Virus record (IMG/VR): IMGVR_UViG_3300035645_000269
DNA: 64,000 nucleotides
From: a virus
Direction: 5' to 3' (one strand)
Shown here: one piece after another, positions 18,115 to 53,877 of the stretch
Position numbering within the stretch: position 1 is the stretch's first letter
Layout: every line of letters starts with the position of its first letter
Translations under genes and position numbers: made by a program
Notes under the pieces: model-generated
Database searches by the model: none
The model's input: only the letters and a program-made list of their open reading frames with translations
Told to the model about the DNA's origin: nothing

Positions 18115-19530
18115 ATGGAACCCCGAAATTATCAGAGAGATAAAAGAAACGAGTTCAGCAACCGCCCTGATTTGGGGCTATTAAAAATTATAACTATGGG
18201 TTTAATTATTGCGGCGGGCAACACAAAGCCCGCGTTTCCTTATGATTACTATTACGGCGTAAAGATTAATATAAACGTGGCAGATACCGCGTTAGAACGC
18301 GTAGGAAGATCGGAACTACATGTTTCGCTCCCGGTTCAATCCCTTATGCGCCGTTGTTTGCTTAACGATGCCGGGCAGGTTGTTACCTACCTTCATCAAA
18401 CCGACAGTACGAAGACGGACACCGGGGCAGCGGCAGACCTTACCGGAGCTTCCGGCATGGTAATGGTAGAAATACCGAAGCACTACCGTAAGTTTGAATT
18501 TGACGGTACTACGTTTACCTGCCTTATATCACAATACCAACTACCGGGCTTTATCGAAGTGCCGAAGATGTACCGGAGCGCATACGAAGCCACGATAGAC
18601 AGAACTTTATCAGCTACGCCCAAACTTGCCAGCGTGGTAAATACTACGGCTGCTTTCCGGGGCGGAAACAATAATACGGCATGGGACGGAACTTATAGAA
18701 CCCTCTTAGGTCGTCCAGCTACACAAACGAGCCTTACCAACTTCCGAAAATACGCACGTAACAGAGGTGCAGCCGGATTGAACAGCGCAGGATGGAACTG
18801 CGATTTATACGCGGCACAAAACGCGACCTATTGGCTTTACGTGATTGAATACGCTAACCTTAACTGCCAGCTTGATTTTAACGCGCAACCTACGAGCGAA
18901 GGGTACAAGCAAGGCGGGTTAGGCGCAGGCGTTACGACGCTTAACAGTACAAAGTGGAACACCTTCAACAGCTACTATCCGTTTGTGCCATGCGGTACTA
19001 CCAATTCATTGGGTAACGCTTCGGGTGTGGTAGAATACACCATGCCGGACGAATACGACACGGGCGTAGTTACCAAAGTAAAAGTACCTTCATACCGAGG
19101 AATAGAAAACCCGTTCGGGCATGTTTGGAGTTGGACGGACGGATGCAAATGCGCCATTGAATCAGACGCGGACGGCGGCATCAGTTCTTTCTATACTTGC
19201 GATAACCCGGCGAACTACCAAGATACAAACTATGACAATTACGTAAAACGTGGCGAACTTCCACGCAAGGAAGGTTATGTTAAGCGCATGATGATAGGCG
19301 AATACGGGGAAAATATGCCTACGGAAGTGGGCGTAGGTTCTACTACCTACTTTGCCGACTACTTCTATACCAACATACCAGCCAGTGGCGTAGCGCAAAG
19401 GGGTGTCTTGTTCGGCGGTGATGCGGATAACGGCGCGGGTGCCGGGCTTTCGTGCGCGTATACGGCTAACGCGGCTTCGTATGCGGGTGCGAATGTCGGC
19501 TCTCGGCTTTGCTTTATCCCCGCCGCGTAA
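18115..19530 (+). CDS. DGR-1 target protein with C-terminal variable region
   Basis: The last ~110 nt (VR1) match TR1 except at TR adenines. Likely true start at the ATG near 18196 (MGLIIAAG) after the 17924..18184 ORF. Confidence 0.75.
   Translation: MEPRNYQRDKRNEFSNRPDLGLLKIITMGLIIAAGNTKPAFPYDYYYGVKININVADTALERVGRSELHVSLPVQSLMRRCLLNDAGQVVTYLHQTDSTKTDTGAAADLTGASGMVMVEIPKHYRKFEFDGTTFTCLISQYQLPGFIEVPKMYRSAYEATIDRTLSATPKLASVVNTTAAFRGGNNNTAWDGTYRTLLGRPATQTSLTNFRKYARNRGAAGLNSAGWNCDLYAAQNATYWLYVIEYANLNCQLDFNAQPTSEGYKQGGLGAGVTTLNSTKWNTFNSYYPFVPCGTTNSLGNASGVVEYTMPDEYDTGVVTKVKVPSYRGIENPFGHVWSWTDGCKCAIESDADGGISSFYTCDNPANYQDTNYDNYVKRGELPRKEGYVKRMMIGEYGENMPTEVGVGSTTYFADYFYTNIPASGVAQRGVLFGGDADNGAGAGLSCAYTANAASYAGANVGSRLCFIPAA
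19401..19512 (+). repeat. DGR-1 variable repeat (VR1)
   Basis: gggtgtcttgttcggcggtGatgcgGataacGgcgcgGGtgcc... versus TR1 ...ggtAatgcgAataacAgcgcgAAtgcc... Every mismatch I could find sits at a TR adenine. Confidence 0.8.
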
Positions 19531-19573
19531 TACGTTACGAAACGAAATGTTTAATAATTAAAAATACAAGAAA

Positions 19574-19918
19574 ATGACTTCAAACAATAATAGCACAGAT
19601 GACGGTAGCCTTTCGTTCTTGAACATCCAGCCGGACGAAGCGAACAAACATTTCAACTGCCCGGAAACCACCCAGCAGAAACTAATCAATTTGCAGTTTT
19701 GGTTAATTGATTTTATCGAAGACGTGAAAACGAAATTCGGTGCGAACCGTTTCCTCGTGAAAATAAAGTTCAAGAAGGACGACCCCGAAAGCGAAGCAAA
19801 GAAGTTCTTCACAAATTCCAGCGAAATAAAATACATTTTGCAGGAAATAAAGAAGCGTAACGCCTTCCCGCGAAAGGTAACTATGCGGGCTTCGGGAACG
19901 CGCTATTATTTTGAGTAG
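19574..19918 (+). CDS. DGR accessory protein (Avd-like, by position)
   Basis: 114 aa ORF between the target gene and TR1. Assigned by synteny only. Confidence 0.35.
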   Translation: MTSNNNSTDDGSLSFLNIQPDEANKHFNCPETTQQKLINLQFWLIDFIEDVKTKFGANRFLVKIKFKKDDPESEAKKFFTNSSEIKYILQEIKKRNAFPRKVTMRASGTRYYFE

Positions 19919-19945
19919 GAAGATTTTCACGGTTGTTTGCCCTTC

Positions 19946-20057
19946 GGGTGTCTTGTTCGGCGGTAATGCGAATAACAGCGCGAATGCCGGGCTTTCGTAC
20001 GCGAATACGAATAACACGGCTACGAATACGAATGCGAATATCGGCTCTCAGCTATAC
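19946..20057 (+). repeat. DGR-1 template repeat (TR1)
   Basis: Adenine-rich (AAT/AAC codons) copy of VR1, non-coding, between the Avd-like ORF and the reverse transcriptase. Confidence 0.8.
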
Positions 20058-20175
20058 TGATTTTTTTGTAAAGCTAATAAGGACAAAGACCGCGCCGGAA
20101 GGCGGAAAATATTAACCATTAACGGGGTTTGGTAGGGAAACCGAAGAACACCATTTAATCAGCAAAGAAATTACT

Positions 20176-21210
20176 ATGAAAAGGTTAGGCAACCTTTACG
20201 ACAAAATAATAAGTTTGGATAATTTGCACCTTGCGGACGAACGCGCCCGCAAGGGCAAACTACATTCCTACGGCGTAAAGTTACACGACCGCAACAAGGA
20301 AGCCAACCTTTTGTCTTTGCACGAAGCACTGAAAGCAGGAACTTACAGAACTTCGGAATATAGTACCTTTACGATATACGAGCCTAAAGAACGCGAGATT
20401 TTCCGTTTGCCATACTTTCCCGACCGGATTGTACATCACGCCGTAATGAACATTTTAGAGCCTATATGGGTGTCTATTTTCACGGCGGACACTTATAGCT
20501 GCATCAAAGGGCGTGGCATACAAGCGGCGGCAAATAAGTTAAGGCACGTTATCGACAGAGATAAGGCAGGCTGCGCGTATTGCTTGAAAATAGACATACG
20601 CAAATTTTACCCTTCCATAGACCACACCGTACTAAAATCCATTGTTCGCCGGAAGATTAAGGACACACGGCTACTCAACCTTTTGGACGAAATTATAGAC
20701 AGTGCGGAAGGCTTACCGATTGGCAACTACCTTAGCCAATATTTAGCAAATCTTGTACTTACCTACTTCGACCATTGGGTAAAGGAAGTAAAGCGGGTAA
20801 GGTACTATTTCAGATACGCCGACGACATTGTAGTATTACATAGCGACAAAAAGACGCTTCACGCTTTGCTGGCAGAGTTTGAAAGCTATTTGGCGGCTAA
20901 CGTAAAGCTGGAAATCAAACAGAACAAACAAGTCTTTCCGGTGGCACGCGACCACCGCGACAGCTTCGGGCGTGGTATTGATTTCTTGGGCTATGTATTC
21001 TATTTGAACGAAACACGGCTTAGGAAGCGTATCAAACAGAACCTTTGCCGTAAGATAGCTAAATTACGGAAACGGAAGAAACCGTTAAGTGAGGATGAAT
21101 TTAAGCAGACGTTAGCCGCGTGGTGGGGTTGGGCTAAATACAGCGACAGCGAATATTTAATTAACAAGTTAAACAAAATTACACCTTATGAAATCAAGTT
21201 CAGACGTTAG
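20176..21210 (+). CDS. DGR reverse transcriptase
   Basis: 344 aa with RT motifs: FPDRIVHHAV, SCIKGRG, YADDIVVL (YxDD) and thumb region GIDFLGYVF. Confidence 0.9.
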   Translation: MKRLGNLYDKIISLDNLHLADERARKGKLHSYGVKLHDRNKEANLLSLHEALKAGTYRTSEYSTFTIYEPKEREIFRLPYFPDRIVHHAVMNILEPIWVSIFTADTYSCIKGRGIQAAANKLRHVIDRDKAGCAYCLKIDIRKFYPSIDHTVLKSIVRRKIKDTRLLNLLDEIIDSAEGLPIGNYLSQYLANLVLTYFDHWVKEVKRVRYYFRYADDIVVLHSDKKTLHALLAEFESYLAANVKLEIKQNKQVFPVARDHRDSFGRGIDFLGYVFYLNETRLRKRIKQNLCRKIAKLRKRKKPLSEDEFKQTLAAWWGWAKYSDSEYLINKLNKITPYEIKFRR

Positions 21211-37178: not shown

Positions 37179-37763
37179 ATGTCAGAACTTAAAATCACAC
37201 AAGAAAAGGTAACAGCCGCTTTTAGTGAAGCAAACGACTGTCCTAAAGCAATTAGTATTCTAACAGCCCTATTCGGAAAGCAAAAGCCGGATTATACAGA
37301 TTATCACAATATTAAAACCTACGAAGATGCTTGTGAAGCAATAGGTGTAAAACCTATTGTTCGCCTACTTGTTGAGGATGAAGACGGACACAAAGAAGAA
37401 GTGGCTGATATTGCACACCTCGCCTACATCAAACTATGCACAATTGCTCGTGCATTGAACAACGATCCTGATTTTCCACGATTTACTAAAGATGAATACC
37501 GTTATACGCCGTGGTTTTATCTTTATAATCAGAAAGAAATTGATGAAATGGACGAAGAGGATCGTAATCAGCTGGTTCTTTGGGGCGGTAGTGCGGATAA
37601 CGGTGCGTATTGCGGCCTCGCTTATGCGGACTCGAATCTCGTTTGGTCGACCTCGTTTGCGTCTGTCGGCTCTCGCCTTGCTGTAAAATCAAGTGAAATC
37701 GCAATTTACTTTGGAGAACAATTCAAAGAATTGTGGAAAGACTTTCTGATTGGAAAAAAGTAA
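37179..37763 (+). CDS. remote DGR-2 target protein (small, C-terminal VR)
   Basis: The C-terminal ~107 nt match TR2 (51284..51391, minus strand) except at TR adenines. Encodes ...LVLWGGSADNGAYCGLAYADSNLVWSTSFASVGSRLA. Confidence 0.6.
   Translation: MSELKITQEKVTAAFSEANDCPKAISILTALFGKQKPDYTDYHNIKTYEDACEAIGVKPIVRLLVEDEDGHKEEVADIAHLAYIKLCTIARALNNDPDFPRFTKDEYRYTPWFYLYNQKEIDEMDEEDRNQLVLWGGSADNGAYCGLAYADSNLVWSTSFASVGSRLAVKSSEIAIYFGEQFKELWKDFLIGKK
37571..37677 (+). repeat. DGR variable repeat (VR2), cognate to TR2
   Basis: gctggttctttggggcggtaGtgcgGataacggtgcgTattgcggcctcgcttatgcgGactcgaatCTcgTttggtcgaCctcgTTtgcgTCtGtcggctctcgcc. Capital letters mark differences from TR2, all at TR2 adenines. Confidence 0.7.
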
Positions 37764-47855: not shown

Positions 47856-49031
47856 TCACTTCCAATCATTATCATTTGAAGCACCGAACATCAGTCCTCT
47901 TCCCAACCTGTCAGAGTTCGGTGACGGATACATAAAATCCACCAACTGCATACAATGGTGCATGGAACCGCCATTCAATGTTTGCTTTGTTCCATTCGCA
48001 TATATCTGAACATTATTATAATTGTCATTTGCATTAACCACGAATATCCTTTGGGTGACGGCAAGACTCAAAAGATAACGGTAGGTTACATTCGATGTTA
48101 TTCTAAATATAACCGTATCAACTGGAAAACCCGAAGTTTCACCGTTATAATCGTATCTTGGCGAATAGCAAGGAACTGTATAATAAGTTTCGTTAGCAGA
48201 GGAAGTCCCGGAAGTCAAAGGTATATAAGTACCGGTTTTATCAGCACCTTTTGTGTACACATAGGCATAGGAGCCGTAAACTACCATAATGCTTCTTTCC
48301 CTTGCGCCAAACACGCCTCTACACCATAAGTCAGAAGTGCAGAAACGTAATGACCGGTTATCCTTAGTACCTTGATGATACATATCACCATCAAACCACA
48401 TTCTTCCATCACTTCCAAAGCTGATTCCTCCAACCGCATCACCAGCAGCATTCACGCAATTCAACCTTGTAAAAGAGCCTGATACACCTTTCAATGTACC
48501 TTCAAAAGTGCTGTCACCTGAAATAACCGCACCAGCCGCATAGAGTTTCCCTGCTATACTCACCTTATATGGCGCATCAGTCGGTGTTGTAGCTCCAACC
48601 CATAACGGATAGTCACCACCAACAAGACCTGCTGCAACCGTTTTATTATCGCCCTTCATTATCAAAAGCTGATTACCCTGCATGAACCGTAGAATAGCAT
48701 TTTGAGCCATGATAAGCGGAGTGTACACTGGCACCAAAGAATTAAACTTCTGCCAATAAGTTGTATTTGTCACCGGAATGGAATCACTGGACGTATGAGT
48801 TTTCAGACATTTATACGCATTAAACGTATTAGCACCGGTAGTCACAATTGCAATATCCAAGTACCGGGTACCGGAAGTCAAAGCCTCGTCATTGCGATAC
48901 TCTATGCCTTTAGCCCATTCGGATTGCCGGAGAATACAGCCTTGCAGCCCGTTTTTCCCCGGTTCCCCATTAGTACCGTCAATTCCATTTTTGGCCTTTC
49001 TTCGTATTAATATATGCCCTTGCGCCTCCAT
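47856..49031 (-). CDS. tail fiber protein with collagen-like N-terminal repeat
   Basis: NGIDGTNGEPGKNGLQG (G-x-x repeats), Gly/Ser/Thr-rich remainder. Confidence 0.45.
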   Translation of the reverse strand: MEAQGHILIRRKAKNGIDGTNGEPGKNGLQGCILRQSEWAKGIEYRNDEALTSGTRYLDIAIVTTGANTFNAYKCLKTHTSSDSIPVTNTTYWQKFNSLVPVYTPLIMAQNAILRFMQGNQLLIMKGDNKTVAAGLVGGDYPLWVGATTPTDAPYKVSIAGKLYAAGAVISGDSTFEGTLKGVSGSFTRLNCVNAAGDAVGGISFGSDGRMWFDGDMYHQGTKDNRSLRFCTSDLWCRGVFGARERSIMVVYGSYAYVYTKGADKTGTYIPLTSGTSSANETYYTVPCYSPRYDYNGETSGFPVDTVIFRITSNVTYRYLLSLAVTQRIFVVNANDNYNNVQIYANGTKQTLNGGSMHHCMQLVDFMYPSPNSDRLGRGLMFGASNDNDWK

Positions 49032-49454
49032 ACCGGATTACTTCAATTTTGCTAATACTTCTTTTGCGATCTCCTTAGCCTTGATACGATAACTCTGATA
49101 ATCAGTGTATTCTTTCAGATATTCGGCACGCTTACCTTCGTCAAGTTCCGAAGCCATATCACGTGCCATTTCCAAGTTGGCGAAAATGGCATCACGTTTA
49201 TTCGCATCATAACGTTCCATGATAATGGCACTTACAATACTGTCATAATCATGTTCCCCTTCAACATCCACGTTTTCACAGACATACTGGTCTTCAACCA
49301 CCACATCTTCCGAACCGGCCTTTTGAACAGCTTCTCTTCTCTCAAAGTCGAAGTAAATGCGTAGCAACGCACCTTCAACTACAAATTCAATACCAGTCGG
49401 CAGTTCTCCTACAAGAGTTCCATAACTTTTCATAAATTACCTCCATTTTTATAA

Positions 49455-50998
49455 TTATTCTTCAAAATAATAAGCACTCTTCCCGTCACCTAACGAACGC
49501 CGCTTGACAATCACATTTTCCACTGGAAAAATCTTCTGACCGTTATTCTCCGCTTCGCGAGCCTGATCCAACACATCTTTCAGATTGTAACAGTTCGTTA
49601 TGAATTTGCTACGTTGTCCGTTCTGTTCAAAAAGAACACAATATCTACCTTCACCTTGCTTTGTCTTCACATTCGTTTCAAAGTCCACCACTGTTATAGG
49701 GACATTGAGAATATCCATCAATCTTGTCTCTTTTACATCGAAGAACTTCTTTCCGTCCTTTGTTCTACCACTCTGTTTGATACCTTTATCTGCAAAACTC
49801 ATATCATTATTTGTTATTGTTCTCCATAAATTCTTACAATCTCCCCACTTACACCAGCCCCAGTATGAAGCTCGTATCTCGCGGTTACGTTTCCGGCTTT
49901 TTATTCGTTTCACCTTTCGGGCAAAGTTCTTTTTCATATTTTTACGCATCCGAACATTATCTTTCGTGAAGCAATAGCCCAAAAAGTTAATCCTTCTTCC
50001 TCTTACTACGTTTTCGCTTTCTATGCTTTTTGTTCCCATTTTTTGTTTCTGTTCCTATCGGAGCAATACAACTGTTTGCTTTAACTACCAACCCAACTTT
50101 TGCACTTTCCCGTTCATACGCACGAATAAGAAACAACGCTTCGGCCTTAGAACGAGCCAGCATAACATTATCATCGCAATATCTATGCAGGCATTTGACA
50201 CGATATTTCTCCTTCATTGTATGATCTATCCGGCTTGCCGCAAAATTCCCGATAGGTTGGCTTGTAAATGCTCCAATCGGAACACCTCTTCTTCCGTTCA
50301 ACTTCATTCTCCAATACGTCAACTAACTCTGTTCCGCTGTCATACGATAAAACAGCTATCTCGATCAATTTAATAAATCGTTCATCTTTGAATTTCCTTC
50401 TCAATGCAGCAACAATAAGCTCATGAAGAATACTTTGATAGAACTTTTTGAAATCAGTCTTTACGAACCATTTGTATTCCGGGTACCGGTGAAGAAAACG
50501 TTTCATTCTCCTTACTCCAAAATGTAATCCCTTTCCCTTGATACACGCACTTGTATCATAAATCAAATTTCTATAAACATCTTCTTCAATCACCCTCATA
50601 ATTGCATGGTGCAATATACGCCACGGGAAATATTTCTGTTTGACAATATCTCGAACCTTTCCTGCATCACTTTTTACTCTCATTACGCTATAATCCGGTG
50701 CCGGAAAATCCAATGTCAGGATCATCAACTGCAAAGCTCGGAGGTCTTCTTCCGGGTGTAGATTATGCCGCCTGATAAAGCGGTTTTTCTTAACCTTCCC
50801 ATCTTGTGCTTCTTTGTCCGCTTCACGTAAATTATTTATCTCTGCTATACGTTCAAGAATATACCCGGCTCTTTTAGATTTCTTTCCACCGTTTGCTTCT
50901 ATCCGTTTATTGTCAGCCTCTATCCTTTCCGCTATAATTCTATCAATTTCATTATGCGATAGACTCTTCCAATCAATATCACTTCTTCCAATATTCAC
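49455..50998 (-). pseudogene. second DGR reverse transcriptase, split across three overlapping frames
   Basis: 50183..50998 has FPWRILHHAIM and ACIKGKG. 49987..50322 has YCDDNVMLA (YxDD). 49455..50039 has INFLGYCF and SYWGWCKWGD. All are collinear with RT-1 motifs but in three frames. Confidence 0.6.
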
Positions 50999-51283
50999 TG
51001 CTGCTTTGTTTTAAAATTTACACCATACTTCCAATTTTGTCTTGTTCAGACTATTTTAATTATTCCGATAACTGCAAGCTGTTTTTACTTGCTTGAATAA
51101 TTCGCCCGGAGCTTTCGAGAACCAACCTACTAACACCGCTTGTTGCCTTTCGCAAATTGGGCAACCTTTCCGCATTCTTGATTTTCTGACATCGTAACCA
51201 ATTGATTACTACGTTGCAACGATATAAATCCTGCAAGGTCATGGCTCGGAGAACTCGCAGATTACTCTACGATAAATAAGTAT

Positions 51284-51391
51284 GGCGAGAGCCGATATTC
51301 GCATTCGAGTTCGACCAATCGTTATTCGAGTTCGCATAAGCGAGGCCGCAATTCGCACCGTTATTCGCATTACCGCCCCAAAGAACCAGCT
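51284..51391 (-). repeat. DGR-2 template repeat (TR2)
   Basis: Minus strand reads agctggttctttggggcggtaatgcgaataacggtgcgaattgcggcctcgcttatgcgaactcgaataacgattggtcgaactcgaatgcgaatatcggctctcgcc. About 75-80% identical to TR1 and adenine-rich. Confidence 0.75.
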
Positions 51392-51514
51392 CTTGTTCCC
51401 CTCTGCCAACCGTCCACGCCTTTCGGCTTTCGTCCCGTTATCCGTTGCCGTAAAACGAGAAGGTGGACGGGTTTTAATTAATTGAAATTCAAAGAACTAA
51501 TATTTCAAAATCTA

Positions 51515-52834
51515 TTATGCAGCCATCAAAGATGCACCGCTAACAAATGTTAAATTCCCAAAATACGCAAGGCGAGAGCCGATACCCGCATACGAGAGCG
51601 ACCAATCGTTAGACGAGGTCGCACAAGCGAGGCCGCAATTCGCACCGTCATACGCAAGACCGCCCCAAAGAACCAGCTGCCCAGTAGTGTTTGCCCATGA
51701 ATAATCAGCCCAATAAGAAGTGCTGTTTCCACCAATCTTTTTCGGGAAAATATCAAAATGCTCCCCAAGAATTATTTCCTGCACTTGACCGGAAGCTGTC
51801 TGACGGGTAGCTTGTCTGTATTCACCATTTGGATGCGCAGCTAATTCAGCAGTAGTCGGTAAACGGTTTCCTTTGTAAATGAAAATTTCCGTTCCACTTT
51901 GAGCACTATTGTTGGAACTACCGCAAAATACTCCTTGCAGAAATTCCCACTGCCACCCATAAGGATCTTCTATACCCATCATGTTCACCCGTGAACAATC
52001 CACTCCAGTATTACTTCCATTCACCACAGAAATAGCTATTTTGCCCCAATTGTCACCGAGACTCTTTGTTGCGCCAGTTTGCAATGCTGCCGCAGCAGCC
52101 CACAAGTCTTTACTGGAGCTACCACCCACACCATAACCAAGTTTGGCTTGAATATTGGTATCTCCGTACTGGGACAGCCCCAACATCATAATAAGCTTTC
52201 TCTGATCGTAATCGGTCAGTCCCCATTCCTTACCGTTCACTTGTGCAGCATTCCAAAATGCGTTGATTGTCTTGCTGCCTGCCGGTGCAACTCCTGAACG
52301 TGAAACAAGTGCGCTACCTGACATGGAGCCTTTGTATGCACCGATACAGTTATACATTCCACCATTTGCCCCACCAATAAACTCACCGCCAATAGGTAGC
52401 ATCGAGAGCCATAAGACTGGTACACCACTCACACTGTCAGTCTGTACACGATAATACAAACGTGGCCCTATCCACATCACATGCCCTTTGGTTTCATCCA
52501 CCGCAGTACCATCAGCAAACACCGCACTATTGGTAGGGGACATTTTAGCAGCCCTTCCATCATTCGTTACGAGATAACGGCCACAATACAACTTGTATTC
52601 TGTCCATGCGGCTGTATTACCTATCACACCATAGTTCGTGCTACTTTGGGTTGATTGTTTGATTGGAATCCCCCAAGCCACCTGCCTCAACATTTGTTCG
52701 TCACCATTATTAATAGCATTCATGAAGTTTTCCACGGTAATGCGTCTGACACTACCACCAACTTCCACCAATACTGTATTGGAACGCAGAATGGAGGTCA
52801 CCAATGTTTCATTTCCTAATCCTTTAGTTGCCAT
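51515..52834 (-). CDS. DGR-2 target protein with C-terminal VR
   Basis: 439 aa. C-terminus ...QLVLWGGLAYDGANCGLACATSSNDWSLSYAGIGSRLAY is encoded by VR3. Confidence 0.7.
   Translation of the reverse strand: MATKGLGNETLVTSILRSNTVLVEVGGSVRRITVENFMNAINNGDEQMLRQVAWGIPIKQSTQSSTNYGVIGNTAAWTEYKLYCGRYLVTNDGRAAKMSPTNSAVFADGTAVDETKGHVMWIGPRLYYRVQTDSVSGVPVLWLSMLPIGGEFIGGANGGMYNCIGAYKGSMSGSALVSRSGVAPAGSKTINAFWNAAQVNGKEWGLTDYDQRKLIMMLGLSQYGDTNIQAKLGYGVGGSSSKDLWAAAAALQTGATKSLGDNWGKIAISVVNGSNTGVDCSRVNMMGIEDPYGWQWEFLQGVFCGSSNNSAQSGTEIFIYKGNRLPTTAELAAHPNGEYRQATRQTASGQVQEIILGEHFDIFPKKIGGNSTSYWADYSWANTTGQLVLWGGLAYDGANCGLACATSSNDWSLSYAGIGSRLAYFGNLTFVSGASLMAA
51560..51667 (-). repeat. DGR-2 variable repeat (VR3)
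   Basis: Identical to TR2 over about 108 nt except about 12 positions, all at TR2 adenines (aat to ctt, gaataac to gtatgac, ttatgcgaactcgaataac to ttgtgcgacctcgtctaac, and so on). Confidence 0.8.
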
Positions 52835-52854
52835 AATATTATTTTGTTTTTATG

Positions 52855-53877
52855 TTAATTAAAATGACATTCTGCCAAAACATCAACATCATATTGAGTC
52901 CCGTTTCTGTCAGTTTCCGTTGTTGTTACAGATATAGAATTTGTTGTAGAATGTTTCAAACTCTTCCAGTTTTCCTTATCCATCACATCCATAGTCCACG
53001 ATGCGGAAGTAGGAGTATAAGTTGACCCCGTAGTCATATTTACAATCTTGGCACTTACTGTAACGGGTTGTCCGGTATCAACCTCTTTGTTGGAAGAAGT
53101 TATATAACATACAATTTGAAATTCATCTGCCGTATCAATGATACGTACCCCGGCACGTGCTATCGGTTGTGAAGCACTTGAAGACTGATAAACTTCTGCT
53201 ATGAATAACTGGGTACCGTCCACATCACCACGGGTAACAGTTACACTTTTCTGTCCGTTCTTATCAGTCCAAGCCGCCGTGTCCTTATACCATTTTATAT
53301 AGTAATCGGTAATGGCATTGGCACCGGCATACAGCTTGGTAGTCAGAGTACAACTTGTTACTTTGCTTGTTAACTGTTCGGTACTTGCAAGAATAGCAAG
53401 ATAGTAAGAGCTGGCTCCCATATTCTGAATGGCAATAGGCAGTTCCCCGGTCAAATTATACTCAACACCTGCCGTAGAAGCGACACATGAATAAGTCAAT
53501 GTATCTCCTGCAATATTCGTTTTGCTTGCCAAGTTTCCGACAATTTTAATGGCACCGGTACTGGTATTCAAAGAGAATTTGCCCGTACTGTCTTTTTTCC
53601 AACCTCCACTTTCCGCACCGTTAAAATTTAAAGCCACTCCATTGTAAGCCCAACTATGACCAGACAAACTGACCGCCAACCCACGTGCCGAAGTTACTTT
53701 GGGTGTCCGTACCGGCTGATTCGCAGCTATACTCCAATCAGGAGAGACAGCCCCACTTTCTTCATCTACGGCCTGAAACAATGGAATGCCATTATTTTCA
53801 AAAGTCAGCATCAGGCTGTCATTGGAACGAAGACGTTTAATCGTGATGCTATTTTGGGCACTATAATTTTCTGCCAT
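52855..53877 (-). CDS. tail/baseplate-associated protein
   Basis: 340 aa Thr/Ser/Gly-rich ORF between the Tal-like gene and the DGR target. Synteny only. Confidence 0.3.
   Translation of the reverse strand: MAENYSAQNSITIKRLRSNDSLMLTFENNGIPLFQAVDEESGAVSPDWSIAANQPVRTPKVTSARGLAVSLSGHSWAYNGVALNFNGAESGGWKKDSTGKFSLNTSTGAIKIVGNLASKTNIAGDTLTYSCVASTAGVEYNLTGELPIAIQNMGASSYYLAILASTEQLTSKVTSCTLTTKLYAGANAITDYYIKWYKDTAAWTDKNGQKSVTVTRGDVDGTQLFIAEVYQSSSASQPIARAGVRIIDTADEFQIVCYITSSNKEVDTGQPVTVSAKIVNMTTGSTYTPTSASWTMDVMDKENWKSLKHSTTNSISVTTTETDRNGTQYDVDVLAECHFN

Follow-up and report, generated by a model that had tools for sequence, protein, structure and literature searches.

The diversity-generating retroelement at 49455–52834

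We analysed a stretch of viral DNA of 64,000 nt (IMG/VR record IMGVR_UViG_3300035645_000269, the window in the following) with respect to the diversity-generating retroelement (DGR) at positions 49455–52834, in which the reverse transcriptase (RT) is spread over three overlapping open reading frames (ORFs). The element is a real, active and already described DGR, and its three-frame RT is an old, selected feature and not damage. It lies in the part of the window (23399–64000) which is 97–100% identical to six GenBank records of Bacteroides phage LoVEphage, namely MW660583, three OY records and the induced isolates PV4-TP1 and BI-TP1, and from these sequence comparisons it can be taken as the native, active DGR of LoVEphage. 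Positions 1–23398, for which no match was found in any of the six records, encode the head, tape-measure, tail, holin and endolysin proteins of another phage together with a retroelement of their own, DGR-1, with the intact reverse transcriptase RT-1. The two DGRs are therefore constituents of two different phage modules, and the original prediction, made by a model from the letters of the window, was misleading in presenting the element as the second DGR of one phage. The LoVEphage element, including a remote target on the opposite strand, comprises the following features:

51515–52834, minus strand: proximal target gene, 439 aa, tail-associated, with the variable repeat (VR) at its 3' end (phrog_5302 'tail protein', E = 1e-41)
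51567–51678, minus strand: proximal VR, with 15 of 15 differences from the template repeat at template adenines
51280–51391, minus strand: template repeat (TR) TR2, 112 nt, of the same sequence throughout the LoVEphage genomes
50183–50998, minus strand: RT ORF1, GTG start, 271 aa, N-terminal extension and fingers/palm motifs 1–3 (RVT_1 profile positions 14–93)
49987–50307, minus strand: RT ORF2, +1 relative to ORF1, from a conserved ATG at 50307 (MKLNGRRGVPIGAFTSQ...YCDD...), palm motifs 4–6 and a basic tail (RVT_1 positions 116–187)
49455–50039, minus strand: RT ORF3, +1 relative to ORF2, ATG at 50039, 194 aa, motif 7 (INFLGY), thumb and C-terminal accessory domain
37179–37763, plus strand: remote target gene, 194 aa (phrog_11581), among methyltransferase and tRNA-ligase genes
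37570–37681, plus strand: remote VR templated by TR2, at the C-terminal end of ORF 37179–37763, identical to TR2 at 86 of 86 non-A positions

Template repeat, variable repeats and target genes

A repeat search paired 51274–51391 with 51561–51678 (118 nt, 86% identity), and base-by-base comparison on the minus strand narrowed this to a clean 112-nt core, TR 51391..51280 against VR 51678..51567, in which all 15 mismatches fall on TR adenines. TR2 is located 287 nt downstream of the proximal VR. The original prediction had recognised this adenine-restricted relationship correctly, with figures that were slightly off, as it counted about 12 mismatches instead of 15 and placed the VR at 51560–51667 instead of 51567–51678. 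Among 21 LoVE-type contigs we observed 18 distinct proximal VRs next to an essentially invariant TR, with 364 of the 373 TR-to-VR differences at A, and in six aligned sequences (the window and five GenBank records) 21% of the VR columns are variable versus 0% in the TR. A TR/VR pair that differs only at TR adenines, together with a hypervariable VR and a constant TR between near-identical genomes, places the element among the DGRs. Two further changes were seen within the VR, an in-frame deletion of 3 nt in OY731444 (corresponding to window positions of about 51648–51650) and, in another genome (L004), a change from T to G at one non-A position.

The remote VR, absent from the original prediction, was found by a scan on the non-A positions of TR2; a direct-repeat search misses it because it lies on the opposite strand. 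Within the 112-nt repeat it shows 11–18 differences per genome, at A sites only, is distinct in each of 5 genomes and varies in 23 of its 112 columns. Both VRs differ in every LoVEphage genome. At the 3' end, TR2 reads ...GGCTCTCGCCATAC and both VRs read ...GGCTCTCGCCTTGC, which amounts to two fixed differences in all genomes, and the boundary is ...CGCCTTGC in both VRs and ...CGCCATAC in the TR, again in all genomes. By analogy, these fixed differences resemble the boundary between the initiation of mutagenic homing (IMH) site and its counterpart IMH*. Both VRs are positioned at the 3' ends of their ORFs. ORF 51515–52834, assigned to a phrog 'tail protein', is annotated as tail protein or tail collar fibre in the LoVEphage records, and a structural note of the depositor, 'Mtd_N', is on record. 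Both targets have been called C-type lectins by Benler et al. (PMC8008677).

Conservation of the three-frame reverse transcriptase

The three frames of the RT could be confirmed at exactly the predicted coordinates (50183–50998, 49987–50322 and 49455–50039, all on the minus strand), each displaced by +1 from the preceding one. The RT motifs run through them collinearly, as had been claimed, with FPWRILHHAIM and TDFKKFY in frame 1, RGVPIGAFTSQ and YCDD in frame 2 and INFLGY and SYWGW in frame 3. ORF1 matches phrog_1423 (Reverse transcriptase, E = 5e-36); its conserved part stops at ...ENEVERKK (about 50288), and its final 33 aa are a read-through of ORF2 sequence. ORF2 contains RGVPIGAFTSQPIGN, in line with the motif-4 signature [LIV]GxxxSQ of the DGR clade of RTs, and its tail consists of the conserved basic motif NKKHRKRKRSKRKKD, which overlaps ORF3. 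For P0004, an intact sister RT in a single ORF, the best PDB match of the AlphaFold2 model is the RT of phage BPP-1, bRT (8ub7_A, E = 5e-19, TM-score 0.87). ORF1 additionally starts with an N-terminal extension of about 40 aa (IDW.SL..EID.I...R......I...GGK..KR; window 50879–50998, minus strand), common to much of the three-ORF clade, where it usually has an ATG start, and lacking in P0004.

Since the three-frame RT is confined to LoVEphage-type records among the GenBank phages, relatives were taken from IMG/VR, where the three RT segments were mapped by tblastn in 80 loci and 34 representative lineages were used for junction counts. The layout is present in the 6 GenBank LoVEphage genomes, all of which divide the RT gene identically, and in about 75 IMG/VR contigs. 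A search with the conceptually joined RT yielded about 60 diverged clusters in which ORF1 ends in the same out-of-frame read-through of RG.PIG..TSQ, and in the tblastn mapping of the three segments almost every one of 86 loci showed +1 followed by +1, down to 44–55% identity; both shifts are common to about 34 distinct lineages, down to about 45–50% amino-acid identity. With each segment analysed in its own frame, the Nei–Gojobori ratio of nonsynonymous to synonymous substitution rates (dN/dS) was 0.02–0.19 over every pair with unsaturated dS (at least 12 pairs), with 0.06–0.17 for ORF1, 0.02–0.19 for ORF2 and 0.03–0.14 for ORF3. At about 70 loci we found a local TR/VR pair, 105–124 nt in length and with 9–25 mismatches, almost all at TR adenines, and in a 7-way alignment the RT region 50899..49717 shows zero differences and the VR is different in every genome. 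The three-frame layout is an old, selected architecture of a large clade of Bacteroidota-phage DGRs, and we consider it close to certain that the RT is functional and that the layout itself is selected.

In neighbour-joining trees the three-ORF RTs cluster beside the intact 477-aa relative P0004, which is found in the same gene neighbourhood; further intact single-ORF relatives are P0007 and others. A distant lineage with about 43% identity (L097:5001–6600, which is P0070, ENA k141_2634922, and L098) has an RT in two ORFs. Its junction 1 is in frame, its junction 2 displays the same +1 shift, an RKRKRS basic tail and an ATG start of the piece with the thumb and the OB-like (oligonucleotide/oligosaccharide-binding-like) domain, and the TR/VR pair of the locus is mutated at adenines (21 of its 22 mismatches). 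In the tree, L097 is placed outside several intact lineages.

For the seemingly broken RT, the original prediction had considered recent decay, homopolymer sequencing errors and service of TR2 in trans by RT-1. Decay is ruled out by the low dN/dS, far from 1 in all three pieces, and by the fact that the shifts are not lineage-specific but the same two in all lineages. The homopolymers near the 50039 junction do exist, as an A6 and an A5 run; the same frames are, however, present in six independent GenBank genomes, among them the induced isolates, and in about 24 near-identical IMG/VR contigs (with the exceptions L009 and L014), and LoVEphage junction 1 (GGAAGAAGAGG) contains no homopolymer run at all. 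A pseudogene, by decay or assembly error, whose TR2 is copied by another RT such as RT-1 would be compatible with the resemblance of TR1, the template repeat of DGR-1, to TR2 (about 70% alike, with nearly identical 3' ends), with the intact RT-1 in the window and with the dead RTs of some contigs (deletions in L039/L052, L014, P0001/P0003 and L076/L078). However, RT-1 lies outside the LoVEphage genome, tblastn of the complete PV4-TP1 genome (72,163 bp) detected no RT-like sequence besides the three-frame RT, and both VRs still vary. The comparison of the RNA flanking TR1 and TR2, which the original prediction had suggested as a check, likewise speaks against service in trans, as the 3' spacers fail to align beyond the TR end. 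With the same frames recurring in many independent assemblies as well, we regard this explanation as extremely improbable.

Inactivated versions of the RT were observed in individual contigs. An 11-nt deletion removes YCDD in L039/L052 (at about 4700), L014 displays a deletion of 122 nt, and in L076/L078 and P0001/P0003 the whole RT core is lost, with ORF1 joined to the C-terminal domain. L039/L052 and L076/L078 have retained TR/VR pairs with differences of the A type.

Expression of the reverse transcriptase

The sequence around both junctions bears on the question of how the three frames are translated. At junction 1, a start codon of frame 2 is located 4–8 codons upstream of RG.PIG in all 34 lineages, as ATG in 30 and as TTG, arising from CTT-GAA, in 4 of them; by chance, a window of 10 codons would contain an ATG in the +1 frame with a background probability of 0.34. 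Where ORF2 starts with ATG, the overlapping codon of ORF1 is NAT in 30 of 30 cases, the background fraction of T being 0.59. At junction 2, a frame-3 ATG is found 14–23 codons upstream of GR.IDFLGY in 33 of the 34 lineages (GTG in the remaining one), and the overlapping frame-2 codon is NAT in 33 of 33, again versus 0.59. The amino acid encoded by this codon is N (10), Y (9), D (8) or H (6); the frame-2 residue thus varies at a constant NAT, and it is therefore the ATG itself which is conserved and not the residue. Downstream of the ORF3 ATG, frame 2 encodes the basic motif [KR][KRW]R[QKM]R[GSM] in 34 of 34 lineages, with all six Arg codons in use, and the frame-3 reading of the same bases is variable. 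Judged from this codon usage, the overlap at junction 2 is real dual coding. Each piece has a conserved start codon of its own and is under purifying selection, as would be expected of the parts of a split polymerase gene. Finally, a one-base deletion can fuse the frames and does occur, so that the persistence of the shifted layout suggests selection on the layout.

The start codons, the NAT codons and the dual coding fit three separately initiated ORFs better than two +1 frameshifts, and we favour, with moderate confidence, a reading in which the three ORFs are translated from their own starts and the polypeptides would assemble into one split RT. Our assessment has shifted towards this reading and away from the published one (Benler et al. 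2021, PMC8008677), according to which a single RT of about 510 aa is produced from the three frames through two programmed +1 ribosomal frameshifts. If frames were joined in this way, the unshifted products would be by-products or regulators, and a low shift efficiency would keep the RT scarce. Both junctions are indeed +1 and conserved, intact single-ORF relatives exist, and a 1-nt deletion variant gives an in-frame ...ELRK-RGVPIG... protein. Several points weigh against separately translated pieces. To our knowledge there is no precedent for an RT in three pieces, and the reading is drawn from sequence throughout. It implies an out-of-frame ORF1 tail varying from about 5 to 115 aa and an ORF2 tail of variable length, and the conserved sequence of ORF1 ends exactly where that of ORF2 begins (…RK followed directly by RG.PIG), which the frameshift model predicts as well. 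Rare-type Arg codons, AGG or CGG, recur at junction 1 in most lineages, and codons of this type can promote +1 shifts in other systems. Fusion of frames is apparently tolerated in natural variants: A5 is shortened to A4 at junction 1 of L087/L088 (P0006), in two assemblies of one sample, an upstream indel fuses a junction in the L080-type RT of P0023, and A6 is extended to A8 at junction 2 of L009 (1310–1330), which stems from an early metagenome data set of IMG (numeric id 2065487001) and whose extra As could be a homopolymer error if these data were pyrosequenced. The bootstrap value for monophyly of the three-ORF clade is weak (38/100), too low for a firm claim that the split clade arose only once.

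The frameshift explanation meets its main difficulty at the shift sites. A conserved shift-prone site, with a slippery P-site codon and a slow or stop codon in the A-site, is not present across the 34 lineages; junction 1 reads AAG AAG AGG, GCG CGG, TGT GCG AGG, AAT CAG AGG etc., with no conserved slippery heptamer or hungry-codon motif, and a motif search for a shared slippery site returned none at either junction. The +1-frame Arg of RG.PIG is kept by swaps between AGA and CGN codons (AGA/CGC/CGA/CGT), and reading of the second frame must therefore begin upstream of the recurring AGG/CGG codon, in a stretch devoid of hungry codons. At junction 2 the shift would be confined to a non-conserved window of 2–8 codons between RKRQRG and GR.IDFLGY, the distance of the 0-frame stops varies widely, and two successive unassisted +1 shifts would leave very little product. 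The conserved downstream start codons and the NAT bias are left unexplained. We therefore consider programmed frameshifting possible, but distinctly the less likely of the two. Restoration of the frame by indels in A-runs, either through transcriptional slippage or through phase variation in the population, would switch the RT on in a minority of transcripts or genomes. It could draw on the AAAAAGA GG at junction 1 of many lineages, on the A5–A6 runs at junction 2 and on the single contigs L087 and L009, each of which fuses two frames. However, junction 1 of LoVEphage and of several other lineages is run-free, 4–6 A are short for efficient slippage, the run positions are not conserved, and the L009 extension may be an artefact as mentioned above. 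Two independent events would be needed per molecule, and the conserved ATGs again remain without explanation. This mechanism appears very unlikely.

With separately translated ORFs, the cycle of the element could proceed as follows. TR2 and the structured RNA following it would be transcribed together, and initiation at GTG 50998, ATG 50307 and ATG 50039 would provide three polypeptides forming one RT. This RT, the element's own, would copy TR2 into cDNA with misincorporation opposite adenines, and the cDNA would replace the two VRs, in the tail-associated protein (51567–51678) and in the small protein of the anti-defence region (37570–37681).

Accessory domain and spacer RNA

The absence of an Avd ORF, noted in the original prediction, could be confirmed: the 60-aa ORF at 51060–51242, a 114-aa ORF of DGR-1 and the neighbouring ORFs gave no Pfam hit at all, to Avd or otherwise. 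This accessory protein is common in DGRs but not universal. Three further features are relevant here:

49458–49802, minus strand: C-terminal accessory-type domain of ORF3, 115 aa, a β-barrel like that of OB-fold and single-stranded DNA-binding (SSB) proteins (phrog_19665)
19574–19918, plus strand: stand-alone 114-aa ORF of DGR-1, between VR1 and TR1 in the usual avd position (phrog_19665, E = 5e-34; no Pfam match)
51104–51286, minus strand: structured RNA directly 3' of TR2, the 'spacer' domain of the DGR RNA, from covariation in 25 diverged loci

The ORF3 domain is modelled confidently as a β-barrel with a helix (pLDDT 87.6). ORF 19574–19918 is homologous to the C-terminal domain of RT2-type RTs and appears to represent an OB-like class of DGR accessory proteins distinct from Avd. 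As phrog_19665 is found both at the C-terminus of ORF3 and in an ORF at the avd position, the 'missing Avd' can be understood as an accessory domain fused to the RT. The basic tail of ORF2 and the OB-like domain may replace Avd in the handling of RNA and cDNA. That the RT of LoVEphage and its relatives would be the first known split RT, maintained by selection, in a DGR which has replaced Avd by a fused OB-like domain and a basic tail, is a proposal from sequence which we consider about as likely as not.

The TR-to-RT spacer contains nearly invariant blocks across lineages with saturated synonymous sites. On the 25-locus alignment, RNAalifold predicts 30 base-pairs, 21 of them with compensatory changes. 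The paired fraction of cells is 95.1%, versus 80.1% in shuffled and 32–42% in slid alignments, and 114 double-change cells were counted versus 31 upon shuffling, with the observed value reached in 0 of 500 shuffles. Covariation thus supports a structured RNA 3' of the TR, similar to the Sp element of other DGRs, for which a role in priming is conceivable. The structure is visible only with the 25 aligned relatives: single-sequence folding of the TR–RT spacer gave no signal (z = −0.9), and an Rfam scan of 49000–53000 at E ≤ 1 returned no match. The 60-aa ORF at 51060–51242, which the original prediction had listed, is present but spurious as a gene. It lies inside this structured RNA, and no conserved ORF was found in the spacer of the relatives.

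Phage context and significance

The left third of the window, with the major head, tape-measure and tail proteins, DGR-1, holin and endolysin, adjoins the repressor region of LoVEphage at about 23399, where free LoVEphage genomes have their integrase instead. This arrangement could reflect tandem prophages, a recombinant phage or a chimeric contig. No tRNA genes were found anywhere in the window. In PV4-TP1, an IS256-family transposase gene is inserted in the tail-gene region (PQ571302.1, 12946–14160; L092).

LoVEphage is about 95% identical to the prophage of B. dorei CP011531 and is very likely the same phage as 'Quimbyvirus'. We take reference 10 of a 2025 Nature paper to be the LoVEphage paper, the reference numbers being unchecked against its list. 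Quimbyvirus was described by Benler et al. (2021, Microbiome 9:78, PMC8008677) under accession OMAC01000147.1 and is likewise about 95% identical to the CP011531 prophage. The authors reported an RT in three frames, for which they proposed the two programmed frameshifts with Quimbyvirus as the only phage analysed, two VRs, one next to the tail genes and the other at a distance, close to methyltransferases and a tRNA ligase, and A-specific variation among near-identical genomes. The Quimbyvirus DGR is almost certainly the same element as the TR2 DGR, and the core observation of a three-frame RT is therefore already known. As far as we could find, the clade-wide layout, the dN/dS analysis, the internal starts, the basic tail, the fused domain and the spacer RNA go beyond that description; a literature search on split RTs in DGRs and on follow-up of Quimbyvirus turned up no work other than Benler et al. 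2021. The RT frames are not a topic of the paper in which PV4-TP1 and BI-TP1 were described. For LoVEphage, the 2025 Nature paper cites its references 9 and 10; reference 9 is given there also as the source of the 1,241 gut viromes and of second VRs at remote sites, two points covered by Benler et al. (PMC8008677). According to the same Nature paper, LoVEphage/Quimbyvirus was detected in about 8% of the 1,241 viromes, belongs to the most prevalent temperate phages in the human gut and has been induced from several species of Bacteroides and Phocaeicola.

Because the DGR diversifies a tail protein and a protein of the anti-defence region, whether and in which way its RT is produced is relevant to host-range switching in the gut. 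Such an RT will be labelled as fragmented or 'hypothetical' by gene callers and DGR finders, as is the case in every GenBank record, and the whole three-frame clade should not be counted as defective. If the RT is indeed composed of split subunits, it would provide a natural design for dividing an RT at two loops and, in addition, a DGR working without Avd, both of which would be of interest for the engineering of DGRs towards targeted mutagenesis.

Comparison with known systems

The DGR of phage BPP-1, known as a complex of bRT, Avd and the TR/Sp RNA (PDB 8ub7), shares with the LoVEphage element the order of target with VR, TR, structured RNA 3' of the TR and RT, the adenine-specific differences, the VR at the C-terminus of a tail-associated protein and the fixed differences between TR and VR at the 3' end; bRT is, as described, the best structural match of the intact sister RT. 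BPP-1 encodes its RT in a single ORF and a separate Avd, a basic helical-bundle pentamer. In the LoVEphage DGR, in contrast, Avd is absent, the RT has an OB-like domain fused to it, ORF2 ends in a basic tail, the RT is spread over three frames, and a second, remote VR is present. DGR-1 (window 18115–21210) and the DGRs of crAss-like phages, to whose RTs RT-1 is 45–57% identical, have the same general cassette. DGR-1 differs in its RT-1, a single ORF of 344 aa, in its separate accessory protein and in its short spacer of 118 nt.

Programmed +1 frameshifts are established for bacterial prfB and for the yeast elements Ty1 (CUU-AGG-C) and Ty3 (GCG-AGU-U), and recoding is likewise used in retroviral gag-pol expression. 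The conserved, +1-displaced polymerase frame and the AGG or CGG at junction 1, as GCG AGG or GCG CGG in some lineages, are reminiscent of these cases, whereas the lack of a conserved shift site, the two shifts within the catalytic domain and the conserved downstream starts are unlike them. A further parallel is offered by naturally split polymerases such as archaeal family-B and phage DNA polymerases, in which the catalytic domain is also cut at loops between conserved motifs. Those known are DNA polymerases encoded by separate, non-overlapping genes, while the LoVEphage enzyme, known from its genes alone, is an RT encoded in three overlapping frames.

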